Assembly: GCA_964632255.1 (NCBI GenBank)
Contig: CAZWCA010000014.1
Coordinates: forward strand, 1,148-65,147
Direction of reading: 5' to 3'
DNA: 64,000 nucleotides
DNA from: an uncultured Smithella sp.
Lineage (GTDB): Bacteria; Desulfobacterota; Syntrophia; Syntrophales; Smithellaceae
Below are positions 11,037 to 43,549 of this stretch, one piece after another. Numbering within the stretch: position 1 is the first letter of the stretch; every line of letters begins with the position of its first letter. The notes below the pieces were generated by a model, which saw only the letters and a list, made by a program, of their open reading frames with translations, made no database searches and was not told the origin of the DNA. A program made the position numbers and the translations under genes.

Positions 11037-11114
11037 AAAAATCTTTACAGCGGTTGATTGCCTTTATAGCTGTAGGAACTTAATATAACGAGCAGGCGGC
11101 GTCTCGCCGAAAAG

Positions 11115-12637: not shown

Positions 12638-13454
12638 GATTATTGACCTCCTATTTGCTCCCTGTTCAAGTAAGACGAAAGTACGAAATCAAAATAAGAT
12701 GTCCTGCAAATTGCAAAATAAAAGGAAGCACCTTGCTTAAGGGCGCTCCCCTTTACCCGACGACTCGGAAGCCCACTTGGCAGAAGAGGGTTAAGAAAAT
12801 CCTAAATTATCCATAAAGCATTTGCAGCCTGATTTTGTGTAAGTGTGTTCCTTATTTACTGCTCCATTCCTGCTTCTTGCTGAGCCGTTCCCTGACTTGC
12901 TGGAAGTTGTTTACTGATACAAAATTCAAATATTCATATAATAGTTTTAACCTACTTTTATCCACTCTTTCGTCTATCGTTGTAAAAAAAGTAATACATT
13001 GTAAATTTAAATAACAAAGAAATAACGGTCATAATTAGCCGGATTAAAGCAAAAGCATAAAAAATGTATAACAAATCATTATTCGTTTCATTGCATATTT
13101 TTTGAGATGCGTATCAATGTAACTCAGAAAGCGGAGCTATATATAAGTTCCGATTAAATAACGGGAAACAATATCTGGTCATCTTGCCTGGCAAGATATA
13201 AAGCAACGCCATCATCGCTCCTAAGAGTTTTGATGCGGAATATGGAAAAAACAAATATAGGCCCTGGTTGAAGACGTAGTTGAATTCTCCGGTCTGTTAA
13301 TTCCACCAAAATCGTAGTTTTGGCCTCTCATAATCATACACTTATTCGGAATCAATGTAACAGGTTATTCGTCTCGAAAAAGGTGAAATCGTTTCGAATG
13401 AATGATTTGATTCTTTTATAAATATAATTTTTTAGATTTAAGGGAGTACAATAG

Positions 13455-14390
13455 ATGAAGGTATTGGTCACTGGTGCATGCGGTTATAAGGGAACAGTCC
13501 TTGTTCCCAAGTTGCTAAATGCCGGCCATGAAGTCATTGCTCTGGATATTATGTGGTTCGGCAACTTTCTTAAACCGCATTCCAGCCTGACTGTTCTTCA
13601 ACAGGATGTCCGCAAGATCGAAGAAATTGCTTTAAATGGTATTGATGCAATTATTCATTTATCCTCCGTTGCCAATGATCCTTGCAGCGATCTTGATCCA
13701 AATCTAACGTGGGAAATAAGTGCGCTGGCGACGATGCAGCTTGCTGATAAAGCCGTAAAGTGCGGCGTCAAACATTTTATTTATGCTTCGTCCGGAAGTG
13801 TTTACGGTGTTAAAGAAGAGCCGAAAGTGACTGAAGATTTAACGCTGAAGCCAATTTCCGTATATAACAAAACTAAAATGATCGCAGAGCGTGTTTTGTT
13901 GAGCTATGCAAATGATATGATTGTTCAGATTGTTCGGCCTGCTACCGTGTGCGGTTTTTCGCCGCGCATGCGACTTGACGTTTCCGTAAACATGCTCACC
14001 ATGCAAGCTTTGAGTAATAATAAAATCACGGTATTTGGAGGCAATCAGGTTCGTCCGAACATTCACATTGAAGACATCACCGATCTTTATGTCTTTCTAC
14101 TTGATCATCCCGATATCAGCGGTATCTTTAATGCCGGGTTTGAAAACATATCAATTCTCGACATTGCCAGGATAGTGACACATTATGTTCCAGCCGAAAT
14201 TATCGTGACTGAGTCTAACGATCCAAGATCTTACAGAGTTAACTCAGATAAACTCTTGGAAACCGGCTTTTATCCCAAAAGAACAGTCGAAGAAGCCATT
14301 ATGGAAATTATTGAAAAATATAATACCGGTGAATTGAAAGATGAAGATTGCTGCTATAATTTGAAATGGATGCAAAAATTCATTATCTAA
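13455..14390 (+). CDS. NAD-dependent sugar epimerase/dehydratase family protein (extended SDR)
   Basis: Rossmann motif VTGACGYKG and YNKTK (YxxxK). AAGGGAG RBS. Confidence 0.8.
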   Translation: MKVLVTGACGYKGTVLVPKLLNAGHEVIALDIMWFGNFLKPHSSLTVLQQDVRKIEEIALNGIDAIIHLSSVANDPCSDLDPNLTWEISALATMQLADKAVKCGVKHFIYASSGSVYGVKEEPKVTEDLTLKPISVYNKTKMIAERVLLSYANDMIVQIVRPATVCGFSPRMRLDVSVNMLTMQALSNNKITVFGGNQVRPNIHIEDITDLYVFLLDHPDISGIFNAGFENISILDIARIVTHYVPAEIIVTESNDPRSYRVNSDKLLETGFYPKRTVEEAIMEIIEKYNTGELKDEDCCYNLKWMQKFII

Positions 14391-14986
14391 TGAACGATCA
14401 ATTAAATTTAAGGCTGAATCACTTCGATGAATATGCTGCAAAACTGCAGTCTATTCTGGTAAATTTTGAGTGGACTGGTGTTAAGGAATTGGCTGTCGCT
14501 TTGAAGTCCTGCTGGGAGGAAGACCGTGGTGTGATGATTTGCGGGAATGGCGGCAGCGCTGCAAATGCCATTCATCTGGCCAATGATTTCCTTTATGGTG
14601 TTTCCGGGTCGCAGAAACCGGGACTTCGTGCAGTAGCACTTTCGGCCAATCCGTCGGTGATGACTTGTCTGGCTAACGATGAAGGATATGAAAATATTTT
14701 TTCTCTTCAACTAGCGGTTCATGGCCGTCCCCGGGACATTCTAATTGTTTTGTCCGGCAGCGGCAACTCACCCAATATTATCCATGTACTTGAACAGGCA
14801 CAGGCACAGGGAATCAGAAGCTTCGCAATCCTTGGTTATACCGGCGGAGTAGCGAAAAAGATGGCCGACGTCCCGATCCATTTTCCTATTGATGATATGC
14901 AAATCAGCGAAGATCTCCAACTCGTTGTCGGACACATGATTATGCAATTTCTTAAAACACCGGTGAAAAAAAATGACAAAATGTGA
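14390..14986 (+). CDS. gmhA: SIS-domain sugar-phosphate isomerase (GmhA-like phosphoheptose isomerase)
   Basis: CGNGGSAANAIHLANDF and SGSGNSPN motifs. The start was taken at the TAATG overlap (14390), not at the track start 14366. Confidence 0.7.
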   Translation: MNDQLNLRLNHFDEYAAKLQSILVNFEWTGVKELAVALKSCWEEDRGVMICGNGGSAANAIHLANDFLYGVSGSQKPGLRAVALSANPSVMTCLANDEGYENIFSLQLAVHGRPRDILIVLSGSGNSPNIIHVLEQAQAQGIRSFAILGYTGGVAKKMADVPIHFPIDDMQISEDLQLVVGHMIMQFLKTPVKKNDKM

Positions 14987-15968
14987 ATTCCTGGTTATTG
15001 GAAGTAATTCCTTTTCCGGTGCCACATTTATTTCTTATCTGCTGGAGAAAGGACATAATATTTGCGGCATAAGCAGATCTTCGGAGGCTGATACCTGTTT
15101 TCTACCGTATAAATGGTTTGATAGCACTGATCGATTTAAATTTTTTCAGTCTGACCTCAATCATGATTTTGAGAAGATAATGGACATTGTTGACACGGAG
15201 AGGCCCGACTATATTGTTAACTTTGCCGCTCAAAGCATGGTTGGCGAAAGCTGGAAAAATCCGGATCACTGGTTTATGACCAATACTGTATCCTGCGTCC
15301 GATTGCATAATCGTCTCCGGCAAAGGAATTTTTTAAAGAAGTATGTACATGTAACAACACCGGAAGTTTATGGAAGCACCAATGGTTTCATCACTGAGGA
15401 TGCACCGTTTTATCCAAGCACCCCGTATGCAGTATCCCGTGCCGCCTCCGATATGAGCCTCCGTACCTTCTTCGAAGCTTATAACTTTCCCGTTGTCTTT
15501 ACCCGTGCAGCCAATGTCTACGGTCCGGGGCAGCAGCTTTACCGGATTATTCCCCGTACCATTCTGTTCATTATGCTGAGGAAGAAGATACAGCTTCATG
15601 GCGGCGGCCATTCCCGACGATCTTTTATTCACATGCGCGATGTTTCAGAAGCCACTTACCGTATCGCCGTTAACGGAAATCCTGGTGAGACTTATCACAT
15701 TTCCACAAATGAGATTGTATCCATTCGCCATCTGGTAGAGCAAATCTGCCGAAAAATGAACGTTGATTTCAATGACCATGTCGAAATCGTTGATGACCGA
15801 TTGGGCAAGGATGCCGCCTATATGCTTGACAGCAGCAAATTACGGAATGCTTTGGGTTGGCAGGATAAAATTGCTCTTGATCCCGGCATTGATGATTGCA
15901 TTACCTGGGTAAAAGCAAATTTTCAGGCACTCAAATCACAGCCATTTGATTACATTCACAAGCCGTGA
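14973..15968 (+). CDS. extended SDR, nucleotide-sugar 4,6-dehydratase-like fold with atypical active-site residues
   Basis: VIGSNSFSGA Rossmann motif. TPEVYG stands where dehydratases have TDEVYG. PYAVSRAASD stands where they have PYSASKAASD. Confidence 0.7.
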   Translation: MTKCEFLVIGSNSFSGATFISYLLEKGHNICGISRSSEADTCFLPYKWFDSTDRFKFFQSDLNHDFEKIMDIVDTERPDYIVNFAAQSMVGESWKNPDHWFMTNTVSCVRLHNRLRQRNFLKKYVHVTTPEVYGSTNGFITEDAPFYPSTPYAVSRAASDMSLRTFFEAYNFPVVFTRAANVYGPGQQLYRIIPRTILFIMLRKKIQLHGGGHSRRSFIHMRDVSEATYRIAVNGNPGETYHISTNEIVSIRHLVEQICRKMNVDFNDHVEIVDDRLGKDAAYMLDSSKLRNALGWQDKIALDPGIDDCITWVKANFQALKSQPFDYIHKP

Positions 15969-15980
15969 TCAATATTAATC

Positions 15981-16814
15981 ATGAAACAAACATATCGCAT
16001 AAACGATCTTGAACAACGTGCCCGCATTCTTCGCGCCAGAATTATTGAAAATGCGCATCGGACGGAAACTCCACATCTTGGATCATGCCTTTCTTGTCTC
16101 GATATTCTTGTAGCCGCATACTTTGCAGTCTTAAACATTGATCCTGAATCGCCTCGCAGCCCGGAGCGCGACCGGTTTATTTTGAGTAAAGGGCACGGTG
16201 CACCGGCATTATTTCATGTATTGGCTATGCGTGGTTTTTTCCCGGAAGCTATGCTTGATTCCTATGGCGAGGACGGCGGTTTATTTGCCGAGCATCCGCC
16301 GACCCCTGATCGTCTGCCCGGCATCGAAGCTGCTACAGGCTCTCTCGGACACGGCTTGCCGATAGGACTGGGAATGGCTCTGGCGGCGCGGATGCAAAAA
16401 CGGAATTATCCTGTTCGTGTTTTACTCAGCGATGGCGAATGTAACGAGGGGGCGGTTTGGGAGGCGGCAATGCTTGCCGCTTCTCAAAAAATGGAAAATT
16501 TAATGGTCATCATTGATTTTAATAAATGGCAGGCAACGGGCCGCAGTGAAGAAGTTATGATGCTTTCTCCTCTAATTGAAAAATGGCGCGCCTTCGGTTG
16601 GAGCGCATATGAAATTGACGGACACGATATGTGCCTGTTAACTGATTTAATGGGCCGTTTGCCTGACGGTACAGGTAAACCTGTGGCTATTATCGCCCAT
16701 ACAATCAAAGGCAAAGGCGTTTCTTTCATGGAAGATGACAACAACTGGCATTATCGTATTCCTACCGCTAATGAAGTGCGTAAAGCCAGGATCGAACTTG
16801 GAATATGCGAATGA
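15981..16814 (+). CDS. transketolase, N-terminal (TPP-binding) subunit
   Basis: HLGSCLSCLDIL, SKGHGAPALF, GSLGHGLPIGLGMA and SDGECNEG motifs. Confidence 0.85.
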   Translation: MKQTYRINDLEQRARILRARIIENAHRTETPHLGSCLSCLDILVAAYFAVLNIDPESPRSPERDRFILSKGHGAPALFHVLAMRGFFPEAMLDSYGEDGGLFAEHPPTPDRLPGIEAATGSLGHGLPIGLGMALAARMQKRNYPVRVLLSDGECNEGAVWEAAMLAASQKMENLMVIIDFNKWQATGRSEEVMMLSPLIEKWRAFGWSAYEIDGHDMCLLTDLMGRLPDGTGKPVAIIAHTIKGKGVSFMEDDNNWHYRIPTANEVRKARIELGICE

Positions 16815-17737
16815 GAAATGCATTTGCTGATGAGATAACACAAATCGGCGCCCGAAAAGAGGAGGTTGTGCTTCTATCGGGAGATATAGGAAATAAGCTA
16901 TTCGATAATTTCAAGCAAACCCGCCAAAATAGATTTTTCAACTGTGGTGTTGCAGAAGCCAATATGGTGGGAGTTGCAACGGGGATGGCGCTTTCCGGAT
17001 TGAGGCCGGTTATTTACACTATTACTCCGTTTACTACCACCCGCTGTTATGAGCAAATACGGGTGGACATTTGTTATCACGGTGCGCCGGTTATAATCGT
17101 CGGCACCGGATCAGGCCTATCCTATGCCGAGCTTGGTCCTACACACCATTCCTGTGAGGATTTGGCAATTCTTCGTGTTCTTCCCGGAATGACCGTACTG
17201 GCTCCATGTGACAGTACTGAACTACGTCTATTATTGCGGGAATCGTTTGATCAGGAAGGCCCTGTCTATATTCGAATTGGGAAAAAAGGTGAACCCGTTA
17301 TTCATTTAGAAAATTCGCCGACGGTCAAAATTGGCCGGGCGACCCGGCTTCGTGAAGGCAACGATATTTGCCTTCTTGCTGCCGGCACAGTAATGATTGA
17401 AGCTCTGAAGGCAGCAGACATCCTGGCTGCACAGGGTATCTCAACACGCATCGAAAGTTTTCACACAATTAAACCGCTTGATGAAGAACGTCTTTTTGAT
17501 GCTTTTGCCAATTTCCCTATAGTTGGCGTCTGTGAAGAGCACAGTCAGATAGGGGGATTAGCCGGCAGTATCGCGGAATGGCGTATCCGACAAAAAGGAG
17601 AACTCGCAAATATGATTGGATTCGGCGTACCCGATGAATTTATGCATGAAGTGGGAAGCCAGTCTTATGCCCGTAAAAAATACGGCTTTGATGCACAAAG
17701 CATTGCAAAACAGTTAGCGGCGGCGCTGCACTTTTAA
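16805..17737 (+). CDS. transketolase, C-terminal (pyrimidine-binding) subunit
   Basis: FFNCGVAEANMVGVATGMA and GPTHHSCEDLAILRVLPGM. It overlaps the N-subunit gene. Confidence 0.85.
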   Translation: MRMRNAFADEITQIGARKEEVVLLSGDIGNKLFDNFKQTRQNRFFNCGVAEANMVGVATGMALSGLRPVIYTITPFTTTRCYEQIRVDICYHGAPVIIVGTGSGLSYAELGPTHHSCEDLAILRVLPGMTVLAPCDSTELRLLLRESFDQEGPVYIRIGKKGEPVIHLENSPTVKIGRATRLREGNDICLLAAGTVMIEALKAADILAAQGISTRIESFHTIKPLDEERLFDAFANFPIVGVCEEHSQIGGLAGSIAEWRIRQKGELANMIGFGVPDEFMHEVGSQSYARKKYGFDAQSIAKQLAAALHF

Positions 17738-17742
17738 ACCAT

Positions 17743-18360
17743 ATGCACATTGGTATCGATTTTGACAATACAATCATCAATTATGACGGCGTATTTCATC
17801 GAGTAGCCTTGGAGCGGAAAGTTGTGCCTCTAACAATCGAACCAACCAAACTTGCCGTACGCGACTGGCTGAGATCAATGGATAAGGAAGAGATCTGGAC
17901 AGAAATGCAGGGATATGTTTATGGAGCCCGAATGGCCGACGCCGAAGTTTATCCAGGTGTATATGAATTTCTTCGGTGGGCGAGATCGGAGCGAATTTGT
18001 ATTTCTATCATAAGTCAAAAAACAAAGAAACCTTTTCGCGGTCCAGGCTACGATTTACATAAGTCGGCGCAAATGTGGATAGAAGAAAATCTTCAAGATG
18101 AAACAGGGCCACTGGTTGCTTTGAAAAGTGTTTACCTTGAAACCACTAAAGAGAAAAAATGGACGAGGATTGCTTCAACTGCCGCGACCCACTTTATTGA
18201 TGATCTTCCTGAAATATTAATCGCGGACGCTTTCCCTGCAACTGCCCAGCGTATTCTTTTTGATCCTGAACATCACCACAGCGCGGTTGAAAATTCTTTG
18301 ATTACCATGCATAATTGGATTGACATTCTTCATTATTTTAATGGACACAACATCGGTTGA
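17743..18360 (+). CDS. HAD-superfamily hydrolase (sugar-phosphate phosphatase candidate)
   Basis: N-terminal DxDxT motif (IGIDFDNTI). Confidence 0.6.
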   Translation: MHIGIDFDNTIINYDGVFHRVALERKVVPLTIEPTKLAVRDWLRSMDKEEIWTEMQGYVYGARMADAEVYPGVYEFLRWARSERICISIISQKTKKPFRGPGYDLHKSAQMWIEENLQDETGPLVALKSVYLETTKEKKWTRIASTAATHFIDDLPEILIADAFPATAQRILFDPEHHHSAVENSLITMHNWIDILHYFNGHNIG

Positions 18361-19405
18361 TTTTGGCAAAGATAAGGATTTTTCAGTGCTGTTGCAGGCT
18401 GCAGGCGAACAGACTGAAAGTGTATCAGTCATTCCACGGAGTGGAGGCGGAAACAACCGTGTTTTTGTCATTCAGGCAAATAGCCGCCGGTATATAGCTA
18501 AACAATATTTTGTTCATCCATCCGATAAGCGTGATCGCCTGCAAGCCGAATACAAATTTCTTGAATATGCTCGTTGCCTTGGTTTGCGGTGTGTACCCGA
18601 ACCATTAGCCCATATTTTAAAAAACCATATAGGACTTTACGAATTTATCGAGGGCAGGCCTATTCAAGCTTATGAATTAGCGCCCCGTCATATTGAGGAA
18701 GCAATAAACTTTTTTTTGAGCTTAAACAGTCCGGCTCGTTTTGGAATGAAGGATGTTTTACCGGATGCTTCCGAAGCGTGCTTTAGCATAAGCAATCAAA
18801 TCGCGATGGTTCGGCAGAGAATTGCCCGCCTTTCAAACATTATACCGACAACACCGATTGATAAGGCAGTCTTTGAGTTTGTCAATCATCTAAAACGTGT
18901 TTTTGAAAAAACAGCCATTGATGTCATTGAGGCTTCGGTTAGCTCAGGCATGAATGTCGATGAAGTTCTCGCACTGGAGTACCGCTGCATCTCCCCGTCG
19001 GATTTCGGTTTTCATAATGCCCTGCTGGGAGGGGATAATAAAGTTTACTTTCTTGACTTTGAATATGCCGGCTGGGATGACCCTGCTAAAATGGCATGTG
19101 ATTTCTTTTGTCATCCCGCTGTACCGGTTGATATAAAATATTTCGATAATTTTTTGCAGAAAGTTATGTCCTTTTCCTCGAATCCTGCTCTTCTTATCAA
19201 CAGGGCTTTAATTACCCTGCCCCTGTATCGAATTAAGTGGTGCTGTATAATATTAAATGAATTTCTTCCTGAATCGGCGAGGCGCCGTCGTTTTGCCGAT
19301 CCGGACACCGATCCGGAGGAGCGTAAACTTATTCAGTTGGACAAAGCATATACTATGTTGAACAAATTTTTTCCGTTGGGAGTTCATACTAATGGCTTAC
19401 ATTGA
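18341..19405 (+). CDS. aminoglycoside/choline-kinase-fold phosphotransferase
   Basis: FGFHNALLGGDNKVYFLDFEYAGWDDP (Brenner and DFE motifs of the APH fold). The start is uncertain (18320 or 18341). Confidence 0.7.
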   Translation: MDTTSVDFGKDKDFSVLLQAAGEQTESVSVIPRSGGGNNRVFVIQANSRRYIAKQYFVHPSDKRDRLQAEYKFLEYARCLGLRCVPEPLAHILKNHIGLYEFIEGRPIQAYELAPRHIEEAINFFLSLNSPARFGMKDVLPDASEACFSISNQIAMVRQRIARLSNIIPTTPIDKAVFEFVNHLKRVFEKTAIDVIEASVSSGMNVDEVLALEYRCISPSDFGFHNALLGGDNKVYFLDFEYAGWDDPAKMACDFFCHPAVPVDIKYFDNFLQKVMSFSSNPALLINRALITLPLYRIKWCCIILNEFLPESARRRRFADPDTDPEERKLIQLDKAYTMLNKFFPLGVHTNGLH

Positions 19406-20063
19406 TTTTCTTTCCACTGTGCATAAAAGCACCAGGCGTGATTATCTTGCCCGTGTCAATGACCCGGATTATCCCAAACCAAAGGCTGCTGAATTGGCCA
19501 AAAAATGGGACTTTGATTACTGGGACGGAGACCGCAGAATTTGTTTTGGAGGTTACCACTATATACCAGGGCGCTGGACTCCGGTTGCCCGGGCGATGAT
19601 CGATCATTACAACGTTAAGCCCGGCGATAAAATTCTGGATATTGGCTGCGGCAAAGGATTCCTGCTTTATGAAATGTCACTGCTGGTTCCCGGAATCGAA
19701 ATATTCGGCATAGATATATCCCGCTATGCAATTGACAATGCAAAGGAGGAAATCAGGGATCGCCTGAAAGCTGCAAATGCCAATGACTTGCCTTTTCCCG
19801 ATAATTATTTTGATTTAACTTATTCGATTACAACACTGCATAATTTGCATAATTACGATCTTGATCGCGCTCTTCGTGAAATGGAAAGAGTTGGAAAAGA
19901 AAATAAATATCTTTGTGTGGAGTCCTATCGCAACGAAACGGAAAAAGCGAATCTCTTATATTGGCAAGTGACATGTGAAGCATTCTGCACGCCGGACGAG
20001 TGGAACTGGTGGTTCAAACAAACCGGCTACACCGGCGATCATTCATTTATCTATTTTGAGTAA
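19392..20063 (+). CDS. class I SAM-dependent methyltransferase
   Basis: Motif I ILDIGCGKGFLL. 14-nt overlap with the kinase gene. Confidence 0.8.
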   Translation: MAYIDFLSTVHKSTRRDYLARVNDPDYPKPKAAELAKKWDFDYWDGDRRICFGGYHYIPGRWTPVARAMIDHYNVKPGDKILDIGCGKGFLLYEMSLLVPGIEIFGIDISRYAIDNAKEEIRDRLKAANANDLPFPDNYFDLTYSITTLHNLHNYDLDRALREMERVGKENKYLCVESYRNETEKANLLYWQVTCEAFCTPDEWNWWFKQTGYTGDHSFIYFE

Positions 20064-20070
20064 AGGAATT

Positions 20071-21123
20071 ATGACAAATATTCCCAAAACAATGAAAGCC
20101 GCGGTTCTCACTAAACTGAAGGAACCCCTTGTCGTTGCTGAAATAACTATGCCTGAAAAACTAATGGTAGGCCAAGTTCTTGTAAAAATCCATTTCAGCG
20201 GTATCTGCGGTTCCCAGCTCGGTGAAATTGACGGCGCAAAAGGAGAGGATAATTTTTTACCGCACCTTCTCGGACATGAAGCATCGGGGTCAGTTGTTGA
20301 CATAGGTCCCGGAGTTCGTCATGTTAAAATTGGTAATAAAGTTGTTTTACACTGGCGTAAAGGATTAGGCATCGAATCAGAAACACCGCGTTTTTTATGG
20401 CAAGGACATAAAGTAAATGCCGGGTGGGTTACTACTTTTAATGAGTACGCCATCGTATCCGAAAACCGCGTTACGGCTATTCCCGATGACAGTGATTTGG
20501 AAGTAGCCGCTCTGTTTGGTTGTGCTGTTACAACCGGTTTCGGCATTGTTGAAAACAATGCAAAAGTTCGCATCGGTGAATCAGTGGTAGTTTATGGGGC
20601 TGGAGGAATCGGTCTCAATATCATTCAGGCTGCATCTCTTGTCAGTGCTTATCCTATTATTGCTGTGGATTTATATGAGAAGAAATTGGAACTGGCCAAA
20701 ATGATAGGTGCTACGCATATCATCAACAGCAGTTCAGATGATGTCAGGCAGGCAATTTTAGATATCGCCGGAAATGCCGGCGTTGATGCTTTTATTGATA
20801 ACACAGGCCAGCCGGAAATTATTGAGTTCGGTTACCAGATTACAAAACCTCAGGGTCGGGTTACGCTTGTCGGTGTGCCGCGCAAAGGAAAAAATATCAA
20901 TATCTACTCGCTGCCGTTGCACTTCGGCAAAGGGCTTAGTGGTTCACATGGCGGCGAGGCAATGCCCCATCTTGACATTCCGCGTTACCAGCAACTCTAT
21001 CGTGTTGGACGAATCAAGCTTCGTGAACTTATAACAGAACGTCTACCATTGAGAGATATAAATATTGCTATAGAAATGATGAGATCAGGCAAAACAGGTG
21101 GACGATGCCTAATCAGTATGTAG
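20071..21123 (+). CDS. zinc-dependent alcohol dehydrogenase family (MDR) oxidoreductase
   Basis: GICGSQ...GHEASG zinc motif and VYGAGGIGL NAD motif. The start was set at the ATG at 20071 (MTNIPKTMKAAVL). Confidence 0.8.
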   Translation: MTNIPKTMKAAVLTKLKEPLVVAEITMPEKLMVGQVLVKIHFSGICGSQLGEIDGAKGEDNFLPHLLGHEASGSVVDIGPGVRHVKIGNKVVLHWRKGLGIESETPRFLWQGHKVNAGWVTTFNEYAIVSENRVTAIPDDSDLEVAALFGCAVTTGFGIVENNAKVRIGESVVVYGAGGIGLNIIQAASLVSAYPIIAVDLYEKKLELAKMIGATHIINSSSDDVRQAILDIAGNAGVDAFIDNTGQPEIIEFGYQITKPQGRVTLVGVPRKGKNINIYSLPLHFGKGLSGSHGGEAMPHLDIPRYQQLYRVGRIKLRELITERLPLRDINIAIEMMRSGKTGGRCLISM

Positions 21124-21144
21124 ATTTTATTCATAAAAATTATC

Positions 21145-22362
21145 ATGATAAAATGTATAAGTTGTAACACGAACACCATTAGAAAGATTATCGATCTCGG
21201 GCCCAATCCCCCGAGTAACCGTTATCTGGATAAGATTGACGAGAACTGTGAAAAACATCCCATAGAATTTGCTTATTGCAGTAGCTGTGGCTTACTGCAA
21301 CTTGTCAATGCTATGCCGCCGGAAATAGTTAAGTCACGTTTCGGCTGGATTACCTATAATGAACCTGAAGCACATCTCGATAATCTCGTGAATCTACTTA
21401 ATTTAAAATATGGATATTCTCCAAAGGTGCGTATTGTAGGTCTCACATATAAAGATGACTCGACTCTTCTTCGCTTTAATAAAATGGGAATTAAAGATAC
21501 TTACCGTCTTAAACAATCCGAAGATCTTGGAATTGATGATCCGTTCGCAAGTCTGGAAACAATACAGGGAGTATTAAATCCGGAGAAGGCCGGAGAGATA
21601 GCTGAAAGGATAGATATGGCGGATATTATTCTTGTTCGTCATATTCTCGAGCATGCCCATCATCCCCGCGTTTTACTTGAAGCTTGCAGCAGCCTGGTTA
21701 AACCAGGGGGGCTATTGGTTTTCGAAGTTCCAGATTGCCGCAAAATGCTGAATGGTCATGATCATTGTTTTCTATGGGAGGAACATATTAGTTACTTTAC
21801 CCCGGAGACATTAAGGCTGTTTTTTGAGCATGCCGGGTTCAGAGATTTTGAGATTAGAATTTACTCATACCCAATGGAAGATTCACTGGTCGCCATTGTT
21901 CGTAATGTTGCTTCAAACCCACTTCAAACAAATAATGATGTTATTCATGAAATATCTCCACTGGAAAATTTTGCCGGTTCATTCAAATCACGAGGCATCA
22001 AAATCAGAAAATATTTACAAAACTTACAGAGTCAGGGGCAGTCGGTAGCACTATTTGGAGCTGGACACGTGGCTGTAAAGTTCATTAACTTTTATAACTT
22101 ATCTTCTTGCTTGATCGGTGTAATCGACGACAATCCCAATAAAATCGGACGCTTCATGCCTGGTTCGCAACTACAAATCTTTAGTTCGGATTGTCTTGAT
22201 TCCGGCGAGATTAAATTATGCCTGTCGGCGCTCAATCCTGAAAGTGAAAAAAAGGTACTTAAAGCAAATGCTGGATATCTGTCTCTGGGTGGAAAATTTT
22301 GCTCCATATTTTCAGCTGGTAGGAACAATATTGATCTGAATATTAATAATGTTAGAAATTAA
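21145..22362 (+). CDS. C-methyltransferase-family protein (Zn-ribbon N-domain plus MTase plus C-domain) with a degenerate SAM motif I
   Basis: CISCN...CSSCGLLQL zinc ribbon and ILEHAHHP...VKPGGLLVFEVP. VRIVGLTYKDDS stands where the paralogue has VVDIGSNDGS. Confidence 0.6.
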   Translation: MIKCISCNTNTIRKIIDLGPNPPSNRYLDKIDENCEKHPIEFAYCSSCGLLQLVNAMPPEIVKSRFGWITYNEPEAHLDNLVNLLNLKYGYSPKVRIVGLTYKDDSTLLRFNKMGIKDTYRLKQSEDLGIDDPFASLETIQGVLNPEKAGEIAERIDMADIILVRHILEHAHHPRVLLEACSSLVKPGGLLVFEVPDCRKMLNGHDHCFLWEEHISYFTPETLRLFFEHAGFRDFEIRIYSYPMEDSLVAIVRNVASNPLQTNNDVIHEISPLENFAGSFKSRGIKIRKYLQNLQSQGQSVALFGAGHVAVKFINFYNLSSCLIGVIDDNPNKIGRFMPGSQLQIFSSDCLDSGEIKLCLSALNPESEKKVLKANAGYLSLGGKFCSIFSAGRNNIDLNINNVRN

Positions 22363-22888
22363 ACGGTTAAATAATGAAGTTTTTGTTGTTGATAGCCCCA
22401 TTGTTTTCTTGGGTGAAGAAGAAATAAACTTTTTAACACAAAAAGCAATGCAAAACCTGCGAAGACGATCAAGAATATGTGCACACAGAACGTCTGATGA
22501 TCCTCTGCACGAGATGATTATAGTAATTGCTTCAGACAGCTATATACGTCCTCATAAACATCTTGCTAAGTCCGAATCATTTCACATTATTGAAGGTCTG
22601 GTTGATATTATTATCTTTGACAATGATGGTTCGATTACAGACGTAATTTCGCTGGGTAACCGGGAATCCGGTCTGAATTTTTACTATCGTCTGTCAGACA
22701 GCAGGTTTCATACGATGCTTATTCATACGGATATCCTTGTTATTCATGAAGTAACAAATGGGCCCTTTGATAAAGCAAAAACGAAATTAGCATCTTTTGC
22801 ACCATCAGAAGAAAATAAAATAGCTGTAAGTGATTACATGGAACATCTTTTAAAAGAAGTGGCTATATTTAAGGCTATGAAACAATGA
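22349..22888 (+). CDS. WbuC-family cupin-fold protein
   Basis: RRSRICAHRTSDDPLHEMIIVIASDSYIRPHKH is characteristic of WbuC-type cupins found in O-antigen loci. Confidence 0.7.
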   Translation: MLEIKRLNNEVFVVDSPIVFLGEEEINFLTQKAMQNLRRRSRICAHRTSDDPLHEMIIVIASDSYIRPHKHLAKSESFHIIEGLVDIIIFDNDGSITDVISLGNRESGLNFYYRLSDSRFHTMLIHTDILVIHEVTNGPFDKAKTKLASFAPSEENKIAVSDYMEHLLKEVAIFKAMKQ

Positions 22889-23811
22889 CTCAAAAAAAAT
22901 CTTTTCTGATTGTTGGCGGAGATAGTTTGGTAGGTGGCGGGCTTGTACATGCATTGCATAAACGCGGTCACTTTGCCTATTCCAGTACACGAAGAAAGAA
23001 TACATTGAATGATCGACGAATTTATCTGGATTTTGAGAGTAGTGAGACATTCATTGTTCCCCCCGAAGTTGACTATGCTTTTATCGTAGCAGCAGCAACT
23101 AACTATGATCGCTGTGAAAAAGACCCATTGGCATACAAAATCAATGTCGAGTTAATTCCCAAAATGATTTCATCGCTCTTGAAGCAAGGAATATTTGTTT
23201 CTTTTATTTCTACAAATTCAGTTTTCGGTGGTGAACGGCCATGGCCGCAAGAAGATGATCCTCATGCTCCGGGGATTGCATATGCAAAGCAAAAAGATGA
23301 AGCGGAGAAAGCAATATATTCCGTGGCGTCCGAATTAAGGGCGAAGGAACGCTTGAATATAACGAGGCTTACTAAAATTCTGGGTCTTAGCACCTCACCA
23401 TTGCCGAATTGGTTCGATACCTGGAAGCGCGGTGAGACCGTACCAGCTTTTTCCGATCTGATTTTTGCTCCAATGTCGGTAAAATTTGTCGGGGAAGCTC
23501 TTACAATACTTGGTGAAAAGCGTATCAATGGTAATTTACATTTGTCCGGAGCCGATAATGTTAGCTACGTTGATTTTGCCCAGGCATTGGCGGGAAAACT
23601 AGGTGTCGATCGGCGATCTATTTCCCCAACCACTGCGACGGCTATGGGGGTGCGTATTGCCTTTAAACCGCGTTACAGCGGATTAAGTATGACAAGAACA
23701 ACAGAGTTGAGCAGTGTCCTGCCGCAACCGTTGTCAGATGTCGTAAATGATCTTGTTTCGGAGGTTGAATTTATCAAAGGAGGACATTGTGGACGCACAG
23801 GTATTTCATAG
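22885..23811 (+). CDS. RmlD-like nucleotide-sugar reductase/epimerase (SDR)
   Basis: LIVGGDSLVGG Rossmann motif and YAKQK (YxxxK). 4-nt overlap with the cupin gene. Confidence 0.65.
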   Translation: MTQKKSFLIVGGDSLVGGGLVHALHKRGHFAYSSTRRKNTLNDRRIYLDFESSETFIVPPEVDYAFIVAAATNYDRCEKDPLAYKINVELIPKMISSLLKQGIFVSFISTNSVFGGERPWPQEDDPHAPGIAYAKQKDEAEKAIYSVASELRAKERLNITRLTKILGLSTSPLPNWFDTWKRGETVPAFSDLIFAPMSVKFVGEALTILGEKRINGNLHLSGADNVSYVDFAQALAGKLGVDRRSISPTTATAMGVRIAFKPRYSGLSMTRTTELSSVLPQPLSDVVNDLVSEVEFIKGGHCGRTGIS

Positions 23812-25060
23812 AGAAACGTGCAGATTATGTAATTCCGGTAATGTGAAAATGGTGGTGAAACTTGAACCCATTCCAATTTCGGAAAACTATTGCCAGAACA
23901 GCGAAACAGGAAAAAATGCTCCACGCTATCCCGTTGATCTTTATATGTGTGCAGATTGCGGGCATGTGCAACAGCTTGATGTTGTCGATTCTAAAACTCT
24001 TTGGGAAAATTATACCTACTATTCCGGAGATGCGAAAGGTATGCCGGAACATTTTGAACAAGTTGCCGGGGAAATTATCAATAAATACCTGATGCCTGTC
24101 GGTTCGCTCGTTGTAGATATAGGCAGCAACGACGGATCATTACTACGGCCATTTATGAAGAGAGGATACAGCGTGCTTGGCATTGATCCCGCAAAAGAGA
24201 TTGCATTGCAGGCAAGCAAATCCGGTATCGAGACTATACCGGAACTAATGTCCTTTAATTTAGCGAAAAAAATTCGTGAGGAGCGTGGACCGGCGCAAGT
24301 CGTTTGTATGTTTAACGCCTTTGCGCATGCGGATAATATGGGAGAAATAGCAGAAAGTATCCGTACCCTGCTTGCTCCGAATGGTGTGTTCGTCTTTGAA
24401 GCGCAGTATCTTCTCGATATTATCGATCGCGTGTTGATTGCGACAATTTTCCATGAGCACATGAGCCATCATTCCGTAATGGCTCTTACAGTGTTCCTTG
24501 AATGTCATGGGATGGAGCTGATTGATGTGGAACGTGTGCCTATTCAACACGGATCGTTAATCGGCACAGTGCAACTCAAGGGAGGCAAGCACTTGAAAAA
24601 CGCTTCTGTAAGGCAGTTATTAGAGCTTGAAGCCCGGCGAGGCTTGAATAGGATTGAAACACTCCGGCAATTTGCGGAAAAAATCGATCAACAAAAGGAG
24701 CGTACGGCACGGCTGGTCACTGAATGGAAAAGGGCTGGAATGTCAATTGCAGGGTATGGTGCTGCGCGGAGTGGGCCCACCTTAATATCACAGCTTGGTC
24801 TTACGGGAACGATCGAGTATATCTTTGATGATCATCCCCAGAAAGTGAACAAGTATTCTTCGGGGGATGGCATCAAGATTATACCGACGTCCGAACTTTG
24901 CCGGCGAATGCCCGCTTACACGATTATTCTTGCCTGGGTGCATTCCGCGAAGATTATAGAAAATAATCAGGAATATCTTGATAAAGGCGGACATTTCGTT
25001 GTTTTGTGCCCCGAAACAAGAGTGATCGGGAAAGAAGGAAACGTAAATATAGGTATTTAA
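23789..25060 (+). CDS. NDP-sugar C-methyltransferase-family protein (TylCIII-like architecture)
   Basis: CRLCN...CADCGHVQQ zinc ribbon, VVDIGSNDGSLL motif I and a C-terminal Rossmann-like domain. A GTG start at 23789 is preceded by AGGAGG. Confidence 0.7.
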   Translation: MDAQVFHRETCRLCNSGNVKMVVKLEPIPISENYCQNSETGKNAPRYPVDLYMCADCGHVQQLDVVDSKTLWENYTYYSGDAKGMPEHFEQVAGEIINKYLMPVGSLVVDIGSNDGSLLRPFMKRGYSVLGIDPAKEIALQASKSGIETIPELMSFNLAKKIREERGPAQVVCMFNAFAHADNMGEIAESIRTLLAPNGVFVFEAQYLLDIIDRVLIATIFHEHMSHHSVMALTVFLECHGMELIDVERVPIQHGSLIGTVQLKGGKHLKNASVRQLLELEARRGLNRIETLRQFAEKIDQQKERTARLVTEWKRAGMSIAGYGAARSGPTLISQLGLTGTIEYIFDDHPQKVNKYSSGDGIKIIPTSELCRRMPAYTIILAWVHSAKIIENNQEYLDKGGHFVVLCPETRVIGKEGNVNIGI

Positions 25061-37505: not shown

Positions 37506-38369
37506 ATGAACATACTCACTATTGATAAACATACAAGAAATCAAAGATATTCGGCATGTTCCGTATCGCCTACACCTGGTGGGGCATTCGCAGTTGCTTT
37601 TGGCGATATAAAAGCTGCAATGCAAATGGCATCTATGTGGATTCATACCGGTTGGATTGAGGTGGTCTGGCGACATCGCAGAACACGGCTTGGCCCTTTC
37701 TGGCATACGCTGAGTCTGGCTTTGTTTGTAATTGTTATGGGGGTTATCTGGGGCAAAGTTCTTAACCAAAATCCTGCTGAGCATTTTCGTTATGTCGGTG
37801 TAAATCTGATCATATGGTCTCTAGTCGTCTCACAGATCACAGATGCTGCGGGTATTATTATTTCCGGAGAATCTTCTGCAATGTCTATGCGGTTTCCTTA
37901 TATTGCTTTTGCGTTTAAACATGTATGGAGTTCCCTGCTTCTTTTTGCCCATCACATGATCCTCTATGTCGCAATCATGGTTGTATCGCTTAAATTTCCT
38001 GGTTGGCCCCTCTTGATGCTGGTGCCGGCGTTGCTGCTGATTCTGGCAAATGGCGTTTGGATGAGCCTTCTTGTCGGCATCATATGTCTAAGCAAACGCG
38101 ATTTTGTTCTCGTTATCGCCAGTGCAATGCAGATCATGATGTTTGTAACTCCTATTTTTTGGCCTAAAAATCTTCTGGGACCGGAACTTGCCTACATTGT
38201 CGATTTTAATCCTCTCTATCATTTGGTAACTATTGCACGCTTCCCTATGCTTGGAGGACTGCCGCCGCTGAGCAGCTGGTTGTGGGCTCTCGGTACTCTG
38301 GCAGTTGGTCTTTGCCTCACATTATGGATATACGGCCGATGCAGAGATCAGATGGCTTATTGGTTCTAG
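37506..38369 (+). CDS. wzm: ABC-2 type polysaccharide export permease
   Basis: About six TM segments. N-terminal pattern W..R.RRTRLGPFW typical of Wzm/KpsM/TagG. It lies next to the ATPase gene. Confidence 0.75.
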   Translation: MNILTIDKHTRNQRYSACSVSPTPGGAFAVAFGDIKAAMQMASMWIHTGWIEVVWRHRRTRLGPFWHTLSLALFVIVMGVIWGKVLNQNPAEHFRYVGVNLIIWSLVVSQITDAAGIIISGESSAMSMRFPYIAFAFKHVWSSLLLFAHHMILYVAIMVVSLKFPGWPLLMLVPALLLILANGVWMSLLVGIICLSKRDFVLVIASAMQIMMFVTPIFWPKNLLGPELAYIVDFNPLYHLVTIARFPMLGGLPPLSSWLWALGTLAVGLCLTLWIYGRCRDQMAYWF

Positions 38370-38379
38370 AAAGAAATAC

Positions 38380-39465
38380 GTGAGATCGATAAAAGTAGAA
38401 AATGCTTGGGTCGAGTTTCCCGTGCGGTCTGTCCGGGGTAACAGATTGCAACATGGTCAAACTGGAGGCACTATTGATCCTGAACGCGGTGTAGTAATGG
38501 CGCTCCAGAATATATGTTACAAACTCAAGGATGGTGAACGACTTGGTCTGATCGGCCACAACGGTGCCGGAAAGACGACAATGTTGCGGCTTCTTGCAGG
38601 TGTCTATGCGCCGACACGCGGTCGAGTCTTCAGCGTTGGACGAATTTCCACCCTTTTCAACACAACCCCCGGTTTAAATGTTAACGGGACAGGACGAGAA
38701 AATATTGTAACCTGCGGTTTGCATCTTGGGATGACTCGTCGTGAAATTGCAAGTAAAATGGATGAAATAATCGAGTTCTCCGAACTTGGCCAATATATCG
38801 ATTTGCCGGTGCGCATTTATTCATCAGGCATGCTGACCCGCTTGGGCTTTTCCATTGCTACAGCGGTAGAACCGGAAATACTGCTTTTGGACGAAGGTCT
38901 TGCCACCGGCGATGCGCAATTCGCACAAAAAGCTCAATTAAAGATGAAAGAATTAATGGGAAAATCATCGATTCTTGTCATTGCCTCTCATTCAGAAACG
39001 CTTGTGTCCAATATCTGCACACGCTGCCTTTTGCTGGAACAGGGGCGGATTCTTAGTGATGGTCCTGCAGCTGCTCTCGTGGAAGAATATCATGATTTGG
39101 TGATTCATGCCGCGCGGAATAATGATCTTGACGGTCTTCATCGCTCTTATCTTCTGGCGACCGAAATGGTTAAACGCGGAAAGATTCCGCCACTGGCTCT
39201 TGAAGAACAAGGTCTGCGCTATGCATTGCGGCTATCGCCAAATGATCTCAGCATGTGGCGCCGTTATGCGCAAGTTAGAATTATGCAAGGGGCATCAGTC
39301 CCGCCCGAAGCTGAAATTCGATTATTCCTGGGTAATTATGAAGCTAATCCATCCGGCGCGGATTTGAGCAGGCTCAGTGATATTCTTAACAATTGTTCAA
39401 AAGAGGATATTTCGCGTGATATTCTGGCACGAACAGAAGAGCTCCTGATGAGGCAAGAAAATTAA
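38380..39465 (+). CDS. wzt: polysaccharide ABC exporter ATP-binding protein with a ~110-aa C-terminal extension
   Basis: Walker A GHNGAGKTT, signature YSSGM and Walker B ILLLDEG. The start is uncertain (GTG 38380, or ATG 38305 overlapping wzm). Confidence 0.8.
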   Translation: MRSIKVENAWVEFPVRSVRGNRLQHGQTGGTIDPERGVVMALQNICYKLKDGERLGLIGHNGAGKTTMLRLLAGVYAPTRGRVFSVGRISTLFNTTPGLNVNGTGRENIVTCGLHLGMTRREIASKMDEIIEFSELGQYIDLPVRIYSSGMLTRLGFSIATAVEPEILLLDEGLATGDAQFAQKAQLKMKELMGKSSILVIASHSETLVSNICTRCLLLEQGRILSDGPAAALVEEYHDLVIHAARNNDLDGLHRSYLLATEMVKRGKIPPLALEEQGLRYALRLSPNDLSMWRRYAQVRIMQGASVPPEAEIRLFLGNYEANPSGADLSRLSDILNNCSKEDISRDILARTEELLMRQEN

Positions 39466-42274: not shown

Positions 42275-43549
42275 TTATAATAGCTCAGGATGTTTGCAAA
42301 GGAACAGTGATGCAATACGAGCGCGCGAGCCAAAGGAATAGTGATTCTCTTTTAATTGGGAGAGGAAGCAATTGAAGCGTTCTTTATCAGCATTTGATTC
42401 AACAAAGCTATTGTCCAAACGGTCAATCATTTCAACTGCCAGGTTACGGATATCTTCAGCGGAGTTTTCTTCGACTCTGATTTTTGCTTTCCTGTATAGC
42501 GCCGCGTAACGGTATTTGGCGAGAGATGATGAAATTACTTCGTCAAACCGGAGATAGCGATTGAGATGCTCGGACCAAAGCAGCTTCGGAATGCTGATAT
42601 CACGGATGCCATACCATAGGTCGGACATAGGAATCATATTGGCAATGGCACAAGGGATACCAAAGACAGATCCGACAAGCGCAATGCCGGATGTATTGCC
42701 GAGGATGAATTTTGCTTTTGCGCAAAGTATTATGTCCAATTGTTCTGATTTCATAGGATGGTGAGCGTAGTCAATAATTTTTGGCAATGGCGGCAATGGG
42801 GTCATGCTAGCATCGCCGATTCTGATAACCCACCCTCCACGAGCTATGATTTCCTGTATTGCAGGCATTATGTTTTCGATGCTTGCATTGCGATGAGATT
42901 GCAGCTCCTCATCAACAGGAGAAAAACCAGGTTCTCTTACATGAACGCAGACAAACCATGCACCTTCGGGCAATCCTAATTGGCGCAATGCATGTGCGCT
43001 CCATTTCTCATCCTCCTTTGTAAGGGAGAGCAGTGGCGGCCGGCCATCCCATAGTGCATTAATTTTATAGGCAGCCTGAGCCTTATTGACGGCAAGTACG
43101 TAACGAGAAATATCATAGCGCATGAAACCGAAGAGACTCATGCTCGACAAAACATAACAGGCCAAGCCGTTTTCGTAGATACGAATGAATGGTTTCCAGT
43201 AATTCAATAAATGATGATTGGCTACACGCCCTGGAGGGGCAAGAATAAACCAGCGGCATTGGGGAATAAGACCGAGCCTCTGCTCTTTGAGAAGACAATC
43301 AGGCTCAATGGCCAGATGACCAATTCGATCTGTAAATACTGTAACACGCCGGTAACCTGCCAAATGAAGAACGATTGTCAAGGGCAAGAGAAGCAGCCAT
43401 AAAAAAATGCTGATTATGTGTTTAGCCGCTTTGAAAAGCAGTATATCAAGCCTTTGCCGGTAAATGCGGCGCCATTCATAAGCGATTCCATGCCAAAAGT
43501 GAGGCCAGTTCAACAAGCGTTCGTCCTTTCCACCGATTAAATCTTTCAA
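42275..43549 (-). CDS. putative GT-B-type glycosyltransferase with an N-terminal TM segment
   Basis: It is the only minus-strand gene in the locus. The C-terminal half (ARGGWVIRIGD...LDIILCAKAKFILGNTSGIALVGSVFGIPCAIANM) resembles the donor-binding half of GT9/heptosyltransferase-like enzymes. The family assignment is tentative. Confidence 0.35.
   Translation of the reverse strand: MKDLIGGKDERLLNWPHFWHGIAYEWRRIYRQRLDILLFKAAKHIISIFLWLLLLPLTIVLHLAGYRRVTVFTDRIGHLAIEPDCLLKEQRLGLIPQCRWFILAPPGRVANHHLLNYWKPFIRIYENGLACYVLSSMSLFGFMRYDISRYVLAVNKAQAAYKINALWDGRPPLLSLTKEDEKWSAHALRQLGLPEGAWFVCVHVREPGFSPVDEELQSHRNASIENIMPAIQEIIARGGWVIRIGDASMTPLPPLPKIIDYAHHPMKSEQLDIILCAKAKFILGNTSGIALVGSVFGIPCAIANMIPMSDLWYGIRDISIPKLLWSEHLNRYLRFDEVISSSLAKYRYAALYRKAKIRVEENSAEDIRNLAVEMIDRLDNSFVESNADKERFNCFLSQLKENHYSFGSRARIASLFLCKHPELL

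Follow-up and report, generated by a model that had tools for sequence, protein, structure and literature searches.

A stretch of 64,000 nucleotides from an uncultured Smithella sp. (assembly GCA_964632255.1, contig CAZWCA010000014.1, positions 1,148 to 65,147; hereafter the window) carries a conserved, horizontally mobile gene cassette in which a split transketolase with a remodelled acceptor pocket is associated with a GmhA-like isomerase, a HAD-superfamily phosphatase-like protein, a small-molecule kinase, two short-chain dehydrogenase/reductases (SDRs), a methyltransferase and an alcohol dehydrogenase. A second piece, at some distance in the same glycan locus, joins a cytidylyltransferase-like domain to a PfkB kinase and resembles the heptose enzyme HldE in reversed domain order. 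The cassette and the reversed fusion may together build a nucleoside diphosphate (NDP)-sugar of at least seven carbons, other than ordinary glycero-manno-heptose, to be placed in a surface glycan that leaves the cell through an ABC transporter; this is a tentative reading, to which we give clearly less than an even chance.

Gene content and extent of the cassette

The genes of the cassette, its optional extension and the two associated genes further downstream are listed below by window position and strand, with the domain, profile or model on which each description rests.

13455..14390, + strand: SDR1, GalE-like extended SDR (Pfam Epimerase, 122.7 bits)
14366..14986, + strand: SIS, GmhA-like sugar-phosphate isomerase (SIS_2, 81.8 bits; alternative start 14390)
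14973..15968, + strand: SDR2, RmlB-like extended SDR (TIGR01181, 210 bits)
15981..16814, + strand: TktN, subunit of a split transketolase with the thiamine diphosphate (ThDP)-binding PP domain (Transketolase_N, 109.8 bits)
16805..17737, + strand: TktC, partner subunit of TktN with the Pyr and C domains (Transket_pyr and Transketolase_C)
17743..18360, + strand: HAD, capped HAD-superfamily phosphatase-like protein of 205 aa (HAD motifs, AlphaFold2 model)
18341..19405, + strand: APH, small-molecule kinase of the APH/choline-kinase fold (the mechanically called open reading frame begins at TTG 18320)
19392..20063, + strand: MT, class-I S-adenosylmethionine (SAM) methyltransferase of 223 aa (Methyltransf_31/11/25)
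20071..21123, + strand: ADH, Zn-dependent alcohol dehydrogenase (ADH_N and ADH_zinc_N)
21145..25060, + strand: optional tailoring sub-module with a C-methyltransferase, a WbuC-family cupin, an RmlD-like reductase and a second C-methyltransferase
43800..45326, + strand: reversed fusion, N-terminal cytidylyltransferase-like domain and C-terminal PfkB kinase (Pfam)
45185..46033, + strand: NTP_transferase-family sugar-1-phosphate nucleotidyltransferase (PF00483, 121.7 bits)

The likely start of ADH is ATG 20071 (start codon checked; the mechanical open reading frame, ORF, runs from 19975), and the domain of the NTP_transferase protein begins at residue 49, its true start being probably near 45329. 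The tailoring sub-module was recognised by Pfam Methyltransf_13/14 and RmlD_sub_bind domains and by a TIGR04366 WbuC match of 133 bits, above the cutoff of 42.

The ORFs of 13455-21123 form an unbroken run on the + strand with short gaps or overlaps, which for the six ORFs of 14390-19405 is the spacing to be expected of one operon, and terminator-like sites are depleted in the region 12000-26000 (6 observed vs. 13.7 expected). An earlier note on this DNA had delimited the unit to those six ORFs and had added a PfkB kinase-nucleotidyltransferase fusion and a second nucleotidyltransferase at 43800-46033. All of these genes were found, the six on the + strand and with domains recognisable by Pfam or by HAD motifs; the limits of the unit did not hold, since it starts one gene earlier (the SDR at 13455) and runs on at least through MT (19392) and the Zn-dependent ADH (20071-21123). 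The conserved unit is thus 13455-21123 of the window, often reaching 25060.

The database names of the cassette proteins were uninformative. In an NCBIfam profile scan, all matches to named enzymes scored below the curated cutoffs, and the cassette proteins are therefore relatives of these enzymes, not equivalogs.

Distribution, gene order and mobility

One genome per species was scanned with the cassette kinase, which was carried by at least 575 species-level genomes from many bacterial phyla and from methanogenic archaea, including cultured Herbaspirillum, Microcoleus, Gemmataceae, Verrucomicrobia, Acidobacteria, Chlamydiales, Dehalococcoidia, Methanoregula and Methanosarcinales. Metagenomic data contain hundreds of relatives of TktN, with identities of 72-88%. 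Three unrelated contigs share the order SDR-SIS-SDR-TktN-TktC-(protein of about 200 aa)-APH-MT-ADH, with or without the C-methyltransferase block, and the 80 loci most similar to the kinase query were mapped; recurrence of the gene order in the unrelated contigs and in these loci makes the arrangement far from a chance one. Two arrangements were distinguished: type A, the window's own (SDR1-SIS-SDR2-TktN-TktC-HAD-APH-MT-ADH), which occurs in Herbaspirillum and other Betaproteobacteria, and type B ([SDR3]-fusion-SIS-SDR1-TktN-TktC-ADH-HAD-APH-SDR2-MT).

Co-occurrence was calculated over the 40 of the 80 loci that have full 10-kb flanks. HAD was present in 100% of them, TktN and TktC in 95%, MT in 95%, SDR2 in 90%, ADH in 88%, SDR1 in 82%, the reversed fusion in 75%, SIS in 60%, C-methyltransferases in 60%, the WbuC cupin in 50%, the NTP_transferase in 38% and a GmhB-type phosphatase in 15%; the components of the tailoring sub-module (21145..25060) ranged from 25 to 60%. 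Two full-flank loci without transketolase end in a minus-strand methyltransferase pair that precedes the transketolase genes in another locus (L071), and their transketolase probably lies just beyond the fetched flank. Unbiased clustering of all ORFs of the 80 loci revealed no further universal partner, an acyl carrier or E2 protein included. A transketolase feeding a glycolyl unit to an acyl carrier through a lipoyl-E2, as in some natural-product pathways, had been considered and was rejected, no carrier or E2 having appeared in this clustering.

The cassette lies beside Rep3 replication genes, ParA partition genes and a DDE transposase on plasmid-like contigs (L003/L004, 1-4500), and on another contig (L005, 15300-20377) it stops after ADH and is followed by insertion sequence (IS) elements (DDE_Tnp_1, IS21 IstB, rve). 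Because it is found on plasmid-like and IS-flanked contigs, the cassette is mobile as well as conserved. Lineage-specific insertions into the gene order were also seen: two DegT-type aminotransferases between SDR2 and TktN in Herbaspirillum rhizosphaerae (L012, 5155-7405), while in Methanoregula (L054, 6415-7467) SIS is separated from TktN by a radical SAM/SPASM protein.

A split transketolase with a remodelled pocket

The closest solved relative of both subunits is the split transketolase of Carboxydothermus hydrogenoformans (PDB 6yak/6yaj), which has the same two-subunit architecture and the same ThDP-binding and catalytic residues (E 1.5e-61 between TktN and the 6yak N-subunit, E 1.1e-54 between TktC and the C-subunit). 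Sixty-five cassette transketolases were aligned with E. coli TktA, whose residue numbering is used throughout. The ThDP-binding and catalytic residues H26, H66, D155, N185, E411 and H473 and the donor-binding His of the WH motif were kept in all 65 sequences, H100 was kept in 58, and R358 was likewise kept across the family. Other positions were exchanged throughout: H461 by G and R520 by K in 65 of 65, S385 by K or R in 61 of 65, and D469 in every sequence (L in 57, N in 8), with I187 to W and F434 to I as further family-wide changes. From what is known of the E. coli and yeast enzymes, mapped by alignment, we take S385, H461 and R520 to hold the sugar phosphate and D469 to read the 2-hydroxyl of the acceptor. 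Since these substrate-binding residues are replaced family-wide, the cassette transketolase, as far as its aligned residues tell, is not a standard pentose-phosphate enzyme.

The Carboxydothermus enzyme, in contrast, keeps H461, D469, R520 and S385, where the cassette enzymes have G, L/N, K and K/R. The cassette enzymes differ from it also in invariant residues of their own, which in TktN are the His in GSLG-H-G, the Trp in DFNK-W-Q and the motif DDNNWHYR. In TktC, a loop reads GTGSGLSYAELGPTHHS in place of the canonical ATHAGLTVGEDGASHQ.

Plasmid pDCAR1 of Solidesulfovibrio carbinolicus (NZ_CP026539.1, 84605-115516) carries two transketolase pairs in one locus. Only the pair adjoining HAD-APH-MT has the altered pocket, the other being canonical, and by this contrast the altered pocket is a property of the cassette. 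The HAD-APH-transketolase-MT core of this plasmid is a distant one and lies inside a pseudaminic-acid-type locus (pseB, pseC, pseF, a NeuB-like gene); the TktN of the altered pair is an intact ORF in a stretch for which no gene is listed (locus 15924-16848).

Heptose-type partners: the isomerase, the reversed fusion and the nucleotidyltransferase

SIS showed 31% identity to E. coli GmhA (E 2e-27) and matched solved GmhA structures at E 7.9e-28, and it missed the TIGR00441 gmhA cutoff (121.7 bits vs. 209.45; 67 bits for the type-B copies). Both active-site His residues and the Ser-rich phosphate loop are kept, and two replacements recur among the 41 cassette-linked copies: the catalytic Glu is Asp in 40, and a Gln of the Zn site is Glu in 38. 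The catalytic Glu is the residue numbered E65 in E. coli and E68 in B. pseudomallei, the residue roles being those given in the literature on GmhA. On these residues, SIS is a GmhA relative belonging to a consistent D/E variant subfamily. Its earlier description as GmhA-type was right as to homology, whereas the equivalog score and the catalytic Glu do not fit.

The best matches of the reversed fusion were the HldE domain models: rfaE_dom_I with 190 bits (cutoff 345) and rfaE_dom_II with 68.6 bits (cutoff 181.5), in the order opposite to that of HldE. The HxGH (as HPGH) and GAGD motifs are kept; the canonical GxSTT motif is absent, the sequence at that place being FSSGEVRFSS. Copies in Acidobacteria, Methanoregula and Microcoleus loci have the same architecture, and in four lineages each half scored best against the matching HldE domain model. 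The fusion lies at most 10 kb from the cassette in its 75% of full-flank loci, those of Acidobacteria, Cyanobacteria and the archaeon Methanoregula among them, and this co-occurrence supports the link that the earlier note had drawn between 14390-19405 and 43800-46033, tying the fusion at 43800-45326 functionally to the cassette. An impression gained from three contigs, that the fusion and the nucleotidyltransferase stand outside the conserved unit, was overturned by the analysis of the 80 loci. The NTP_transferase protein (45185..46033) had ManC- and RmlA-like models as its best NCBIfam matches, all below cutoff, and directly follows the fusion in many type-A loci.

The HAD protein and the APH-fold kinase

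No Pfam match was obtained for the HAD protein, which bears all four HAD motifs (DFDNT, SxxSxKT, a conserved Lys and FIDDLPE), with D6, D8, T10, S91, T94, K139, D153 and D154 invariant across 36 sequences. Its AlphaFold2 model is a confident HAD fold (pLDDT 94.6), and the closest PDB structures by Foldseek are capped 5'(3')-deoxyribonucleotidase-type HADs (TM-score up to 0.75), GmhB being absent from the top 50. Against solved structures, neither the single sequence nor the 36-sequence profile gave a significant match. With no NCBIfam GmhB match, no similarity to E. coli GmhB (BLASTP E = 1.3) and a deoxyribonucleotidase-type fold, the protein at 17743 is not of the GmhB/histidinol-phosphatase type, contrary to the part given to it in the earlier note. 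In Microcoleus, where HAD and APH are also present, the fusion is followed by a genuine homologue of GmhB, 40% identical to the E. coli protein.

The kinase family carries PF01636 in 34 of 34 members and PF01633 in 20 of 34, and its catalytic motifs SPSDFGFHN and DFEYAGWDD are invariant. The AlphaFold2 model (pLDDT 92.3) matched choline kinases, APH(9), LicA and NahK about equally in Foldseek (TM-score 0.5-0.57); against solved structures the single sequence had no match and the profile had weak choline-kinase matches (E about 0.01). The only subfamily signal is thus choline/ethanolamine kinase, and the fold search, which returned the generic APH/choline-kinase fold, was discarded as a guide to the substrate. 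Heptose anomeric kinases would be expected to have a PfkB or GHMP fold, which the kinase at 18341 lacks. Its assignment as the heptose kinase is accordingly not sustained: that slot is filled by the PfkB domain of the fusion, a heptose-type kinase, which leaves the 18341 gene surplus to the scheme of the earlier note. HAD lies always directly upstream of the kinase, in constant order in the mapped loci, and this adjacency suggests that the two may form a second unit which shifts a phosphate between positions.

The SDRs, the methyltransferase and the alcohol dehydrogenase

The SDR1 motifs SS(G/S)SVYG and YxxxK were conserved in 50 family members. SDR2, aligned to solved RmlB structures, has (S/T)(S/T)-P-E-V-Y-G in place of the T-D-E motif of the dehydratase; over 61 family members the Pro is found in 59, the Tyr is invariant, and the Lys of YxxxK is replaced by Arg in 30. 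SDR2 is thus not RmlB (dTDP-glucose 4,6-dehydratase) by its motif, T-D-E being absent, or by its TIGR01181 score (210 bits vs. a cutoff of 365). MT is the most conserved gene of the cassette (median identity of 66.8% across loci); the solved structures closest to it, tried as a guide to its substrate, are those of generic class-I enzymes and gave no clue. The nearest NCBIfam models of ADH are class-III/formaldehyde-type enzymes (209 bits, below cutoff), and in type-B loci ADH directly follows TktC. From its similarity to this class of primary alcohol/aldehyde enzymes, ADH could make or consume an aldehyde for the transketolase.

Proposed pathway and alternatives

From the gene content, synteny, co-occurrence, retained catalytic motifs and altered pockets described above, we infer the substrates, the sequence of reactions and the product as follows. 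The transketolase would lengthen a non-canonical phosphorylated aldehyde, which ADH may make or handle, by a two-carbon ketol unit, and would so form a non-standard 2-ketose phosphate; its acceptor pocket, having lost the Asp that would read the 2-hydroxyl, has a phosphate site that appears rebuilt and still cationic. SIS would turn the ketose phosphate into an aldose phosphate, the PfkB domain of the fusion would phosphorylate the anomeric position (C1), and a HAD phosphatase would take off the distal phosphate. The NDP-sugar would then be made by the cytidylyltransferase-like domain of the fusion, by the NTP_transferase at 45185 or by both, and would be tailored by SDR1, SDR2 and MT, together with the C-methyltransferase, WbuC and RmlD-like genes where these are present. 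Finally, TIGR04372-family and GT2 glycosyltransferases would use the sugar and a Wzm/Wzt exporter would export the glycan. This scheme keeps the more cautious idea of the earlier note, namely that a dedicated transketolase makes a ketose-phosphate precursor whose chain length cannot be read from the sequence; it is viable and is the leading hypothesis. In a bolder reading, which is doubtful, the transketolase would catalyse a reaction so far unknown for its class in the synthesis of glycans: the two carbons would be added to a non-canonical acceptor (an unusual sugar phosphate, or an aldehyde on an activated (6-deoxy)heptose), and an undescribed C8-C9 or otherwise rearranged monosaccharide would be displayed on the cell surfaces of many bacterial phyla and of methanogens.

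Known systems resemble the cassette in part. With the pathways to ADP-L/D-glycero-beta-D-manno-heptose and GDP-D-glycero-alpha-D-manno-heptose (GmhA, HldE or HldA/HldC, GmhB; HddA, HddC) it shares a GmhA homologue, HldE-like domains, a HAD-superfamily protein, an NTP_transferase and the setting in a glycan locus. It differs from them in that the fusion is reversed and below cutoffs, the isomerase has Asp for Glu, GmhB has no relative in the HAD protein, and an APH-fold kinase, a dedicated transketolase, a Zn-dependent ADH and a conserved methyltransferase are added as obligatory partners. The one-to-one mapping of the genes to GmhA, HldE, GmhB and HddC fails, since HAD is not GmhB and the kinase has the APH fold.

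The lincosamide GDP-octose route consists of the transaldolase LmbR, the isomerase LmbN, the kinase LmbP, the phosphatase LmbK and the guanylyltransferase LmbO. It is likened to the cassette by pathway logic: a dedicated pentose-phosphate-type C-C enzyme gives a non-standard ketose phosphate, which is isomerised, phosphorylated at C1, distally dephosphorylated and nucleotidylated. It moves a three-carbon unit by transaldolase, whereas the cassette has a transketolase for a two-carbon unit and domain scans found no transaldolase domain (LmbR-type) among the locus ORFs; and it belongs to an antibiotic cluster, while the cassette belongs to widespread cell-surface glycans. YerE and the AviB1/AviB2-type E1 pairs are pyruvate-using ThDP enzymes of the acetolactate-synthase or E1 families that add acetyl branches (yersiniose-type). 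They too are ThDP enzymes, sometimes of two subunits, beside NDP-sugar 4,6-dehydratase-like and tailoring genes; the cassette enzyme, unlike them, is a true transketolase relative which keeps the donor-hydroxyl histidines, and its locus carries isomerase, kinase and phosphatase genes superfluous to branching.

Several observations weigh against the proposed pathway. The scheme gives the APH-fold kinase no necessary role, the HAD protein of the cassette is not GmhB-type, and some loci carry a true GmhB besides HAD. SIS, its second enzyme, is detectable in only 60% of the full-flank loci, those of Microcoleus being without it. The loci sampled are the 80 closest to the kinase query, a non-random set in which the presence of the kinase is true by construction. 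In the literature on glycan-locus transketolases, no published characterisation of the cassette or of its family enzymes was found. The cationic entrance of the transketolase and the adjacency of TktC and ADH fit equally well a reaction at a late stage, on the aldehyde of an activated sugar.

Such a late-stage extension of the chain is, all considered, rather unlikely. SIS, the fusion and a phosphatase would make an NDP-heptose, of which SDR2 may give the 6-deoxy-4-keto form; ADH would oxidise the terminal alcohol, the transketolase would add two carbons to give an NDP-nonose-type or other extended sugar, and SDR1 and MT would finish it. The class-III primary alcohol/aldehyde type of ADH and its position directly after TktC in type-B loci would suit this, as would a transketolase entrance which keeps R358 and gains K/R385, K520 and R259, and is more cationic than a site for a single phosphate. 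The changes H461G and D469L remove bulk and the 2-hydroxyl contact, as expected for an acceptor with no hydroxyl on its alpha-carbon, and several loci hold a complete canonical set (reversed fusion, true GmhB, SIS) besides the transketolase, HAD and APH, which places the transketolase outside the basic activation route. The pocket argument is, however, a qualitative one drawn from alignment, and the kinase/phosphatase pair would have no obvious role after activation. To our knowledge no transketolase is known to act on a nucleotide sugar.

It is distinctly improbable that the split transketolase simply runs the standard reaction and raises sedoheptulose-7-phosphate for an ordinary NDP-heptose, as a self-sufficient cassette for hosts with a weak or absent pentose-phosphate pathway. 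Sedoheptulose-7-phosphate may be scarce in methanogens and other anaerobes, in which the cassette does occur, all catalytic transketolase residues are intact, and GmhA-like and HldE-like partners are present. Yet H461, R520, S385 and D469 are replaced in 61-65 of the 65 sequences and kept by the true split transketolase, the altered pocket follows HAD-APH-MT even beside a canonical pair in the same locus, and the isomerase is likewise a variant. Betaproteobacteria such as Herbaspirillum, moreover, presumably already own housekeeping tkt, gmhA and hldE genes, so that the cassette copies they carry are unlikely to be redundant. The altered pocket tied to the cassette and these carriers together argue against plain supply of sedoheptulose-7-phosphate, which the earlier note had considered and which the family-wide replacement of acceptor-binding residues makes unlikely.

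Equally hard to credit is that the transketolase, HAD, the kinase, MT and ADH work independently of the heptose-type enzymes and make a separate substituent or cap, either a decoration of the methyl-phosphate type or a small alcohol that is phosphorylated and methylated, to be attached to the glycan or its terminal residue. Kinase and methyltransferase activities do cap ABC-transporter-dependent O-antigens. The choline/ethanolamine signal of the kinase points the same way, and so do the HAD-kinase-MT adjacency, which is the tightest and most conserved of the cassette, the Wzm/Wzt genes directly upstream of it in several loci, and the distant core found inside a pseudaminic-acid-type locus. Two extended SDRs and the HldE-like fusion, which co-occur at 75-90%, point instead to nucleotide-sugar chemistry, and the domain scans of the window showed no phospho-alcohol transferase (LicD-type or similar). 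WbdD is a kinase-methyltransferase fusion, unlike the cassette kinase and MT, which are separate, soluble-looking proteins.

The least probable alternative, and a remote one, is that the transketolase attacks the carbonyl of an NDP-4-keto sugar from SDR2 and installs a glycolyl (hydroxyacetyl) branch reduced by ADH or SDR1: SDR2 is RmlB-like and adjoins TktN in type-A loci, the kept histidines for the donor C1 hydroxyl mean a dihydroxyethyl and not a hydroxyethyl unit, and the contact lost with D469L would suit a ketone acceptor, but the branching enzymes known so far come from other ThDP families, SDR2 is without the Asp of the dehydratase and stands apart from the transketolase in type-B loci, and an isomerase, two kinases and a phosphatase would be left unexplained.

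The surrounding glycan locus and the rest of the window

The wider glycan locus extends to about 48.9 kb in the window and includes GT2 glycosyltransferases, an AsnB-like amidotransferase, about ten methyltransferases and the following genes for export and transfer:

37506..39465, + strand: Wzm/Wzt-type ABC-2 exporter (ABC2_membrane and ABC_tran)
42275..43549, - strand: TIGR04372-family glycosyltransferase (201.8 bits vs. a cutoff of 45)

The GT2s, the TIGR04372 glycosyltransferase and Wzm/Wzt alongside the cassette bear out the earlier view that this is a glycan locus in which the cassette genes serve a sugar-nucleotide pathway. The Wzm/Wzt-homologous pairs directly upstream of the cassette were seen in several Betaproteobacterial loci. 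Homologues of TIGR04372 occur in at least 11 cassette loci, and the annotation of the Solidesulfovibrio locus also names this family; the protein at 42275..43549 is a candidate for the enzyme that transfers the product of the cassette.

Methyltransferase genes are unusually dense (19392-42252 and 50869-51606; about ten, two TylC3-like C-methyltransferases among them), which implies a heavily methylated glycan; a TylF-type O-methyltransferase lies at 36172-37209. Two further ORFs of the glycan locus, 25199-28174 (991 aa) and 39526-41400 (624 aa), had no Pfam or NCBIfam match, the 624-aa protein having weak homologues in a few cassette loci. Upstream of the glycan operon is a 1.4-kb AT-rich stretch with no long ORF (12017-13455, GC about 0.38), in which a 65-aa ORF (12440-12637, - strand) with two CxxC pairs is zinc-ribbon-like.

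Runs labelled METAGENOMIC RNA-Seq (sludge) assemble the region 11000-27000 into contigs of 33-44 kb with flat depth spanning intergenic DNA. Given this flat depth, these runs behave as DNA and say nothing on transcription.

The left edge of the window (1396-9245, - strand) is occupied by a prophage remnant:

1396-2514, - strand: Mu GpP-like baseplate protein
4181-5515, - strand: DnaB-type helicase
5512-6288, - strand: Phg_2220_C protein
7944-9245, - strand: tyrosine integrase

To the right of the glycan locus, a tRNA-Ala (CGC; 59394-59469) is followed at once by a phage-type integrase with an Arm-DNA-binding domain (to 60891), an arrangement that has the look of an integrated element's left border. 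The two integrases had raised the possibility that the glycan locus is a genomic island, which was dropped: the sole tRNA precedes the right-hand integrase and places the element rightward. Also downstream of the glycan locus are a DUF4114/PEP-CTERM protein (52186-52905) and, at 56785-59097 on the - strand, two adjoining T2SSE-family secretion ATPases beside a receiver-domain protein.

A contig of Ca. Kuenenia (L074) bears TktN-TktC-HAD-APH-MT. The S-layer O-glycan of Kuenenia contains an unidentified residue of 174 Da (PMC5088730), which is a conceivable product of the cassette, though the link is speculative.

Significance

No description of the cassette or of a glycan-locus transketolase was found in the literature, including papers on the Herbaspirillum O-polysaccharide, on NDP-heptose nucleotidyltransferases and on Kuenenia glycans, and we know of no surface-glycan sugar pathway that uses its own transketolase. 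The components of the cassette come from known families and follow a logic like that of the NDP-heptose and lincosamide-octose routes, and there is a real chance of new chemistry. Hundreds of species, ranging from Proteobacteria to methanogenic archaea, carry a transketolase of altered specificity locked together with heptose-type activation enzymes, and with Herbaspirillum and other culturable carriers the question is open to direct test. Once the product is identified, a new monosaccharide or another way of making higher-carbon sugars would probably come to light. Several large “hypothetical” families would gain a function (more than 4,500 clusters for HAD and more than 6,700 for the kinase), and transketolase enzymology would gain a new class of substrate, a matter of interest for biocatalysis. 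NDP-heptoses are innate-immune agonists, and because of this a widespread variant of their pathway may matter for innate immunity.

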